From contig NC_086097.1 in assembly GCF_963921235.1 (NCBI RefSeq), forward strand, positions 28,956,001-29,020,000: DNA of 64,000 nt, in the 5' to 3' direction. Below the pieces are notes generated by a model. That model saw only the letters and a program-made list of their open reading frames with translations. It did not search any database and had not been told where the DNA came from. This document shows, in pieces, positions 20,194 through 21,833 of the stretch; position 1 is the first letter of the stretch, and each line of letters opens with the position of its first letter. This stretch comes from Mobula hypostoma. Its lineage: Eukaryota. The position numbers and the translations under genes are program-made.

Positions 20194-21833
20194 CAGTTGA
20201 AGTCAGAAGTTTACATACACATTAGCCAAATACATTTAATCTCAGTTTTTCACAATTCCTGACATTTAATCCTAGAAAACATTCCCTGTCTTAGGTCAGT
20301 TAGGATCACTACTTTATTTTAAGAATGTGAAATGTCAGAATAATAGTAGAGAGAATGATTTATTTCAGCTTTTATTTCTTTCATCCCTTTCCCAGTGGGT
20401 CAGAAGTTTACATACATTTTGTTAGTATTTGGTAGCATTGCCTTTAGATTGTTTAACTTGGGTCAAACGTTTTGGGTAGCCTTCCACAAGCTTCTCACAG
20501 TAAGTTGCTGGAATTTTGTTCCACTCTTCCAGATAGAACTGGTATAAGTGAGTCAGGTTTGTAGGCCTCCTTGCTCGCACATGCTTTTTCAGTTCTGCCC
20601 ACAGATTTTCTATTGGATTGAGGTCAGGGCTTTGTGATGGCCACTCCAATACCTTGACTTTGTTGTCCTTAAGCAACTTTGCCACAACTTTGGAGGTATG
20701 CTTGGGGTCATTGTCCATTTGGAAGACCCATTTGCGACTGAGTTTTAACTTCCTGGCTGATGTCTTGAGATGTTGTTTCAATATATCCACGTAATTTACC
20801 TTCCTCATGATGCCATCTATTTTGTGAAGTGCACCAGTCCCTCCTGCAGCAAAGCACCTCCACAGCATGATGCTGCCACCCCCATGCTTCACGGTAGGGA
20901 TGGTGTTCTTTGGCTTGCAAGCCTTACCCTTTTTCCTCTAAACGTAACGATGGTCATTATGGCCAAACAGTTCAATTTTTGTTCCATCAGACCAGAGGAC
21001 ATTTCTCCAAAAAGTAAGATCTTTGTCCCCATGTGCACTTGCAAACTGTAGTCTGGCTTTTTTATGGCGGTTTTGGAGCAGTGGCTTCTTCCAGGTTGAG
21101 CAGCCTTTCAGGTTATGTCGATATAGAACTCGTTTTACTGTGGATATAGATACTTGTCTACCTGTTTCCTCCAGCATCTTCGCAAGGTCCTTTGCTGTTG
21201 TTCTGGGATTGATTTGCACTTTTTGCACCAAAATACGTTCATCTCTAGGAGACAGAATGCGTTTCCTTCCTGAGCAGTATGACAGCTGCGTGGTCCCATG
21301 GTGTTTATACTTGCGTACTATTGTTTGTATAGGTGAATGTGGTACCTTCAGGAGTTTGGAAATTGCTCCCAAGGATGAACCAGACTTGACAGCATTTTCT
21401 GACCTCAATCTGATAGAAAATCTGTGGGCAGAACTGAAAAAAGCATGTGCGAGCAAGGAGGCCTACAAACCTGACTCAGTTACACCAGTTCTGTTTGGAG
21501 GAATGGAACAAAATTCCAGCAACTTACTGTGAGAAGCTTGTGGAAGGCTGCCCAAAATGTTTCACCCAAGTTAAACAATTTAAAGGCAATGCTGCCAAAT
21601 ACTAACAAAGTGTATGTAAACTTCTGATCCACTGGGAAAGCGATGAAAGAAATAAAAGCTGAAATAAATCATTCTCTCTACTATTATTCTGACATTTCAC
21701 ATTCTTAAAATAAAGTAGTGATCCTAACTGACCTAAGACAGGGAATGTTTTCTCAGATTAAATGTCAGGAATTGTGAAAAACTGAGTTTACATGTATTTG
21801 GCTAAGGTGTATGTAAACTTCTGACTTCAACTG
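20194..21833 (-). mobile_element. Sleeping Beauty-like (Tc1, IR/DR group) transposon, rearranged to carry two right ends
   Basis: Ends CAGTTGAAGTCAGAAGTTTACATACAC...GTGTATGTAAACTTCTGACTTCAACTG. TA at 20192-20193 and TC on the right (mutated TSD). Inner DR GGTCAGAAGTTTACATAC. Confidence 0.92.
20422..21388 (-). pseudogene. Tc1/SB-type DD34E transposase lacking about 19 N-terminal residues, with an in-frame TAG near 20938
   Basis: KSGSSLGAISK...WSDGTKIELFGHNDHRYV*...[10 protein letters not shown]...[10 protein letters not shown]...[15 protein letters not shown]...KGNATKY, nearly colinear with SB transposase as recalled. Confidence 0.9.

Follow-up and report, generated by a model that had tools for sequence, protein, structure and literature searches.

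Host features of the locus

The window, i.e. the whole 64-kb stretch of DNA that was analysed, carries three exons of LRRC74A and, approximately 5.4 kb upstream of the LRRC74A ATG, a Tc1 transposon resembling Sleeping Beauty (SB), which lies inside a hairpin repeat of the host. The host features are the following:

7702-7809 and 14024-14197, minus strand: further LRRC74A exons, from protein comparison
14647-14766, minus strand: first coding exon of LRRC74A, from protein comparison
19483-19713, plus strand: remnant of a pogo/Tigger DDE_1 transposase upstream of the hairpin, from tblastn and a terminal motif shared with the hairpin
20044-21978 (20044-20193 and 21834-21978), unstranded: host hairpin non-autonomous repeat holding the element, from its inverted arms and the shared terminus
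20192-20193, unstranded: TA target-site duplication, intact side
21834-21835, unstranded: second target-site copy, TC for TA, one substitution inferred from the other hairpin arm

An earlier note, made from the letters of the window, had taken the DNA to be apparently chondrichthyan, and exon-by-exon comparison of LRRC74A bears this out. All 134 residues of the three exons are identical to LRRC74A of Mobula hypostoma, which identifies the window as devil ray DNA, and 129/134 are shared with M. birostris. Over the two better conserved exons, identity amounts to 78/94 residues for the skate Leucoraja, 68-76/94 for nine sharks and 35-41/94 (37-44%) for eight teleosts, in a comparison covering 25 of 120 listed orthologues, from which Pristis and Hemitrygon (two partial ray proteins) and Mustelus were left out for poor alignment over the exons.

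ANGEL1 and LRRC74A are arranged head to head in mammals. A GC-rich short frame with an initial Met at approximately 62210 (62210-62326, plus strand) presumably resembles the first exon of ANGEL1, in which case the SB-like element would sit inside a 47-kb divergent intergenic region. Several further repeats were seen in the window. Six 53-bp tandem units, 96% alike, lie directly upstream of LRRC74A (15400-15716), and a young, partly palindromic short repeat family, with copies mostly 89-99% alike, is found at 2612-2808, 7861-8855, 15758-15922, 55589-55853 and 63305-63403, including an inverted pair (7861-8222 and 8462-8823) that adjoins an LRRC74A exon. A 478-bp palindromic repeat at 43279-43756, 76% self-complementary and with ends that we take to be mariner-like, represents a second hairpin non-autonomous element, and decayed Ty3/gypsy-like pol frames (52267-53100 onward), broken up by other repeats, occupy 51800-56960.

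The SB-like element is flanked by TA on the left and by the substituted TC on the right. Once the element is taken out, the restored site can be aligned to the opposite hairpin arm with neither a gap there nor any loss of host sequence, and it matches its own reverse complement at 166 of 206 positions; a CR1-like LINE cuts off the right side of the hairpin. The host repeat had previously been described as Tigger-like. Insertion at a TA within a host hairpin is confirmed, while the Tigger link is indirect, running via the terminus that the hairpin shares with the adjacent DDE_1 remnant. For this remnant 19 relatives were found, one of them named tigger-derived, with DDE_1 present in 6 of the 18 that were scanned; an Atlas search pointed weakly to DDE_1 (16% of members), and a Pfam scan of 19483-19713 itself returned no domain.

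The element and its closeness to Sleeping Beauty

The bounds of the element are exact (20194-21833), with the SB terminal motif starting both ends. Its parts are given below, where L122 is a full-length SB-type reference element described further on:

20194-20421, minus strand: native right IR/DR of 228 nt, 216 of which agree with the L122 right IR; outer DR terminal and inner DR 199 nt in
20422-21387, minus strand: SB-clade DD34E transposase pseudogene, residues 21-340, stop at 20938-20940, with D153, D244 and E279 kept
21389-21398, minus strand: 10 nt left over from the canonical 5' UTR (canonical 264-273), flanked by microhomologies of 3 nt and 2 nt
21399-21833, plus strand: inverted second copy of the 3' end (canonical 1206-1639), holding the last ~200 nt of the transposase and the right IR/DR

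The earlier note had read a Tc1 element with an SB-like transposase from four peptides, all of which fall in the minus-strand frame 21387-20422 with its single in-frame stop. The resemblance to SB far exceeds chance, as shown by a match to the SB100X catalytic domain (5CR4, E 3e-98), by matches to all three solved SB N-terminal pieces, by Pfam domains HTH_SB, HTH_Tnp_Tc3_2 and DDE_3, all above cut-off, and by 87% identity to the pT2 vector transposase. The DD34E triad together with a paired-like HTH domain places the element among the Tc1/DD34E transposons, and ends of approximately 230 bp, each with an outer and an inner DR, place it in the IR/DR subgroup; an IR/DR end of about this size had been proposed before. 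Instead of an intact 340-aa frame, the first 20 codons are gone and a stop stands at W170. The copy is unable to make transposase and could have moved only in trans. No second copy of the element was found within the 64-kb window.

A metagenome scan returned 31 loci, two of which, L122 and L125, are SB-type elements of full length. Both are metagenome contigs and are called salmonid-type by protein identity, in that the open 340-aa frame of L122 is identical to the pT2 vector transposase at 336/340 residues and clusters with salmonid proteins. The ray element agrees with L122 at 1121/1194 nt (93.9%) without gaps and with L125 at 1117/1195 nt. For the transposase coding sequence, 902/963 nt are identical to L122 (93.7%, i.e. 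above 80%; dS 0.107, dN 0.054), and the non-coding right IR/DR is as close (95%). The transposase groups with SB100X at 100/100 support, which assigns it to the SB clade. The earlier statement that both the SB transposase and its non-coding right end are matched with few changes was accurate, and nucleotide identity to SB, a low value of which would have told against horizontal transfer, is high.

Compared with SB10, SB11, SB100X and the natural salmonid Tss1, the ray element is alike in its DD34E transposase (87-88%), right IR/DR (95%), TA target and length of ~1.64 kb. It differs from them as a distinct subfamily with an in-frame stop and a devil ray host, and in having a second right end instead of a left IR/DR, enhancer, promoter and first 20 codons.

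Searches of plasmids, of viral contigs at the protein level and of prokaryote genomes gave no match to the element. A 15-mer scan of viral contigs did return 121 loci, none of which was similar to the element at E 1e-5, and these were dismissed as chance. As a separate observation, a 65-bp inverted pair, 95% alike (L122 44-108 and 1546-1610), adjoins the SB copy of L122 at its left end, which suggests that SB had there landed in the terminal part of a different DNA transposon.

Two right ends in place of a left and a right

The element is bounded by a terminal inverted repeat of 435 bp, the arms of which are 95% identical and both correspond to the 3' end. The duplicate at 21399-21833, which carries one private 1-nt insertion near 21437, stands in place of the left IR/DR, the promoter and the start codon with the first 20 codons. 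Read along the coding strand, the order is inverted canonical 1206-1639, the 3-nt microhomology, canonical 264-273, the 2-nt microhomology and canonical 445-1639. Together with its flanks, the UTR remnant matches at 14/15 positions, a score reached by 0/5000 random fillers when measured against L122 and by 1/5000 against L125. Beyond these 10 nt, no match to the middle of the left IR or to the 5' UTR was found anywhere in the window, and the canonical SB layout is absent. The SB-like IR/DR reported earlier is present as a right end, but there is no left one, both ends being right, an architecture that had been overlooked.

The 171 nt gained by the inversion exactly offset the 171 nt lost by the deletion, a balance that was measured against the teleost-type reference L122 (L125 differs by 1 nt) and may differ against the ray's own 5' end. 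The element accordingly measures 1640 nt, with its one private insertion, against a wild-type length of 1639 nt. The exact balance may be due to chance, for which a rough post hoc estimate gives approximately 1%.

Of 434 sites compared between the arms, 21 are different, with 10 and 9 changes private to either arm and 2 unassigned; the divergence is 2.5% per arm (95% interval 1.5-3.7%). This evenly split divergence of 5% excludes both a recent self-copy and a fold-back artefact, but it does not date the join if the arms derive from two different copies. Among the private coding changes in the two arms 10 are non-synonymous and 2 synonymous, as expected without selection. The differences from L122 that both arms have in common within the last 203 coding nt (9 non-synonymous, 3 synonymous) likewise give no sign of purifying selection.

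A long TIR formed by the 3' part, as seen here, is one hallmark of 3'-3' families of the Rpmar49 kind. In Rpmar17 and Rpmar49 of Rhodnius the 5' part has likewise been swapped for the inverted 3' part, leading to long TIRs with transposase sequence, and a size constraint on Rpmar17 was noted without an explanation (PMC4678618); the 5'-5' mariner MITEs of Drosophila have undergone a comparable rearrangement (PMC4161770). These rearranged mariners have simple short IRs and are shortened to ~0.9 kb, whereas the ray copy is an IR/DR Tc1 of full length with a UTR remnant, seen as a single copy in the window. The survey by Jia et al. 2022 describes SB TIRs that reach 415 bp, as well as a 3' TIR that overlaps with the reading frame (PMC9777934), which may reflect the same rearrangement in teleosts. 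Autointegration, in which transposon ends are joined to internal TA sites (PMC3952818), was considered and rejected, as neither join uses an end or a TA.

Early on, the 5' end of the copy would have been swapped for an inverted 3' end via two microhomology-guided joins, giving two right IR/DRs; the joins were presumably made by template switch or gap repair, or by deletion in a head-to-head dimer. Where this happened can be explained in two ways, which we regard as about equally likely. The right-right form may have had a single origin at another site and then moved as a whole, in which case the copy would belong to a non-autonomous ray family, a reading that comes close to an even chance. Two right SB ends are said, on the word of one study, to perform poorly. 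The left IR of SB contains an enhancer (PMC5224488), which is absent here, SB favours left ends, and the window holds one right-right copy only. Transposition as a unit is, on the other hand, in line with two complete ends, a single target duplication and a host repeat that is otherwise intact. The divergence of each arm also resembles the decay of the copy itself (12/200 residues), hence equally old, and amplified 3'-3' mariner lineages are on record (PMC4678618).

Nearly as good as even are the prospects of the second explanation, by which a normal copy was inserted and its 5' end overwritten in place, at insertion or soon afterwards, by a one-off template switch between paired inverted repeats. 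The left and right IRs do pair in register, with the inner DR at position 200 in both, both joins show short microhomologies, and retention of the wild-type length (+171/-171) fits a single in-place event. Length is, however, kept in just 5.5% of ape short template switches, these being of at most 128 nt (PMC7954356), and the balance invoked is one against a teleost-type reference, off by 1 nt for L125.

Probable horizontal transfer, the ray subfamily and the possible donor

The dead element is far closer to teleost-type sequence than the working host gene LRRC74A is to its teleost orthologues. The comparison of divergence with host orthologues proposed earlier could be made for this one gene at the protein level, and sets the element's dS of 0.107 against the 35-41/94 residues shared with teleosts. 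Rays and teleosts separated more than 400 My ago. At the mean vertebrate synonymous rate of 3.1e-9 per site per year (Zhang et al. 2020, PMC7070016), the teleost branch alone would over this time collect more than one change per site, and vertical descent thus predicts saturation.

The tree left the ray, the salmonid-type and the sea-bream/characin-type SB without a resolved order. A grouping of all teleost-type SB without the ray was not rejected (p-AU 0.46), nor was one of the ray with the salmonid-type (p-AU 0.46), and the case for transfer consequently rests on distance and not on topology. A further topology test with p 0.009 was set aside, as it compares different families. Vertical descent from the jawed-vertebrate ancestor under strong conservation is compatible with this topology and with the low shark mutation rate (7e-10 per generation), which also means that the ray side of the divergence may be old. 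Even so, it would have to reconcile 95% identity of a non-coding IR and the low dS of a dead copy with 37-44% identity of a host protein, and we consider it very improbable.

From this evidence we strongly infer horizontal transfer, as the earlier note had done. Very probably, an SB-clade Tc1 transposon (IR/DR, DD34E) crossed between the forebears of devil rays and some lineage of ray-finned fishes. In the ray germ line it would have multiplied beyond a single copy through cut-and-paste insertion at TA sites before decaying neutrally. The direction is likely to have been into the ray, since SB is widespread in actinopterygians. In Jia et al. 2022 (PMC9777934), SB is recorded from 107 actinopterygians and one mollusc, with zero chondrichthyans among the 108 species, and a ZB-like element from one chondrichthyan. 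Within this survey and the transposase relatives scored below, SB does not show the continuous distribution that would have told against transfer.

A second SB copy, a fragment, is found in the M. hypostoma protein XP_062921089.1 (P0091). Over 200 aligned residues it has nine in common with the window where L122 differs; at these nine, both depart from the salmonid Tss1 subfamily. Over the same 200 residues the window copy and P0091 show 12 and 20 private changes, respectively. When 164 transposase relatives were scored at ten diagnostic sites, all ten ray residues occurred only in P0091, the next best sequence having five. The P0091 model, annotated as "LACTB2 isoform X2", fuses approximately 200 SB transposase residues with the LACTB2 winged-helix domain, which is either a mis-annotation or a chimeric transcript.

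The element is highly similar to a common laboratory vector family, and contamination by teleost or vector DNA would be one way to account for this, as would an assembly fold-back for the paired arms. Against contamination argue the subfamily residues shared with the second annotated Mobula copy and the target-duplicated insertion within a host repeat, and a fold-back is at odds with arms that are 5% different; the chance of either is very small. Among 24 public runs none held more than 0.38 of the element's words, L122 alone accounting for 0.11. In four SB-rich runs, the salmonid-type letter made up ~95% of the depth or more at two neighbouring diagnostic positions, 21156 and 21158. Compared with 20628-23600, these four of the 24 gave cover in 13-14 of 30 bins, essentially the element alone, and each of them showed canonical loose ends at 21388 and 21399. 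Among the 15 of 708 joints and 32 of ~350,000 pieces listed, none crossed the right-right junction, a sample that says neither yes nor no.

The likeness to salmonid SB claimed at the outset holds in so far as the nearest protein-database sequences are salmonid-type, but a salmonid origin is unsupported. Although the best protein matches cluster with salmonid proteins, several ray residues are common to sea-bream/characin-type SB and not to salmonid SB, and a clade of ray and salmonid elements is unresolved in the tree. In the part of the PMC9777934 supplement examined, the diagnostic 13-mer occurs once, in Heterotis, and two adjacent diagnostic changes are, by eye, also present in Pangasianodon. 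A donor that was specifically a salmonid is unlikely. The SB-Hetnil (Heterotis) and SB-Panhyp (Pangasianodon) sequences, from freshwater hosts, have the two adjacent changes as well as cysteine and glutamine codons as in the ray copy, a likeness judged by eye on the first 400 letters (PMC9777934). As a lead, these two copies may be the nearest to the ray SB. It is conceivable, though on balance doubtful, that an SB of the Heterotis/Pangasianodon type entered the ray and that its right-right derivative, of wild-type length and devoid of the left enhancer, became an amplified non-autonomous family.

Transfers of fish Tc1 elements reported between teleosts and lampreys (PMC3516227) and the 975 vertebrate events of PMC7070016 are of the same kind; the ray case differs in concerning the SB clade itself and a batoid. 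Among the literature covered on SB/Tc1 transfer in cartilaginous fish, no sequence-level ray report was found; most subscription papers and the repeat databases lay outside this coverage, and a prior record is possible. SB-like elements have been indicated by a PCR band in salmon shark, and a mobulid genome preprint does not mention Tc1. Horizontal transfer, with a host class new to the SB clade, is well supported at this locus, which also holds an unusual right-right copy, both kinds of event being already known. The significance of the find is tempered by the frequency of Tc1 transfer among fishes, which is to be expected, and by the state of this copy, which is dead and gives no hint of a function.

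With this finding the cartilaginous fishes, on the other side of the deepest split of the jawed vertebrates, come within the natural range of the transposon tool that is most used in vertebrates. Slow evolution in rays would have preserved a subfamily with states lost from the salmonid form, which is useful for reconstructing the spread of SB. Tc1/mariner DNA makes up 2.30% in rays against 0.14% in sharks (PMC12361510), and transfer from bony fish is a testable source of this high content. The right-right junction provides a sharp marker for the origin of non-autonomous IR/DR elements. If an amplified right-right family does exist, it would be a natural counterexample to the laboratory rule of SB left-end preference, and its exact length would suggest that IR/DR elements are constrained in size or register.
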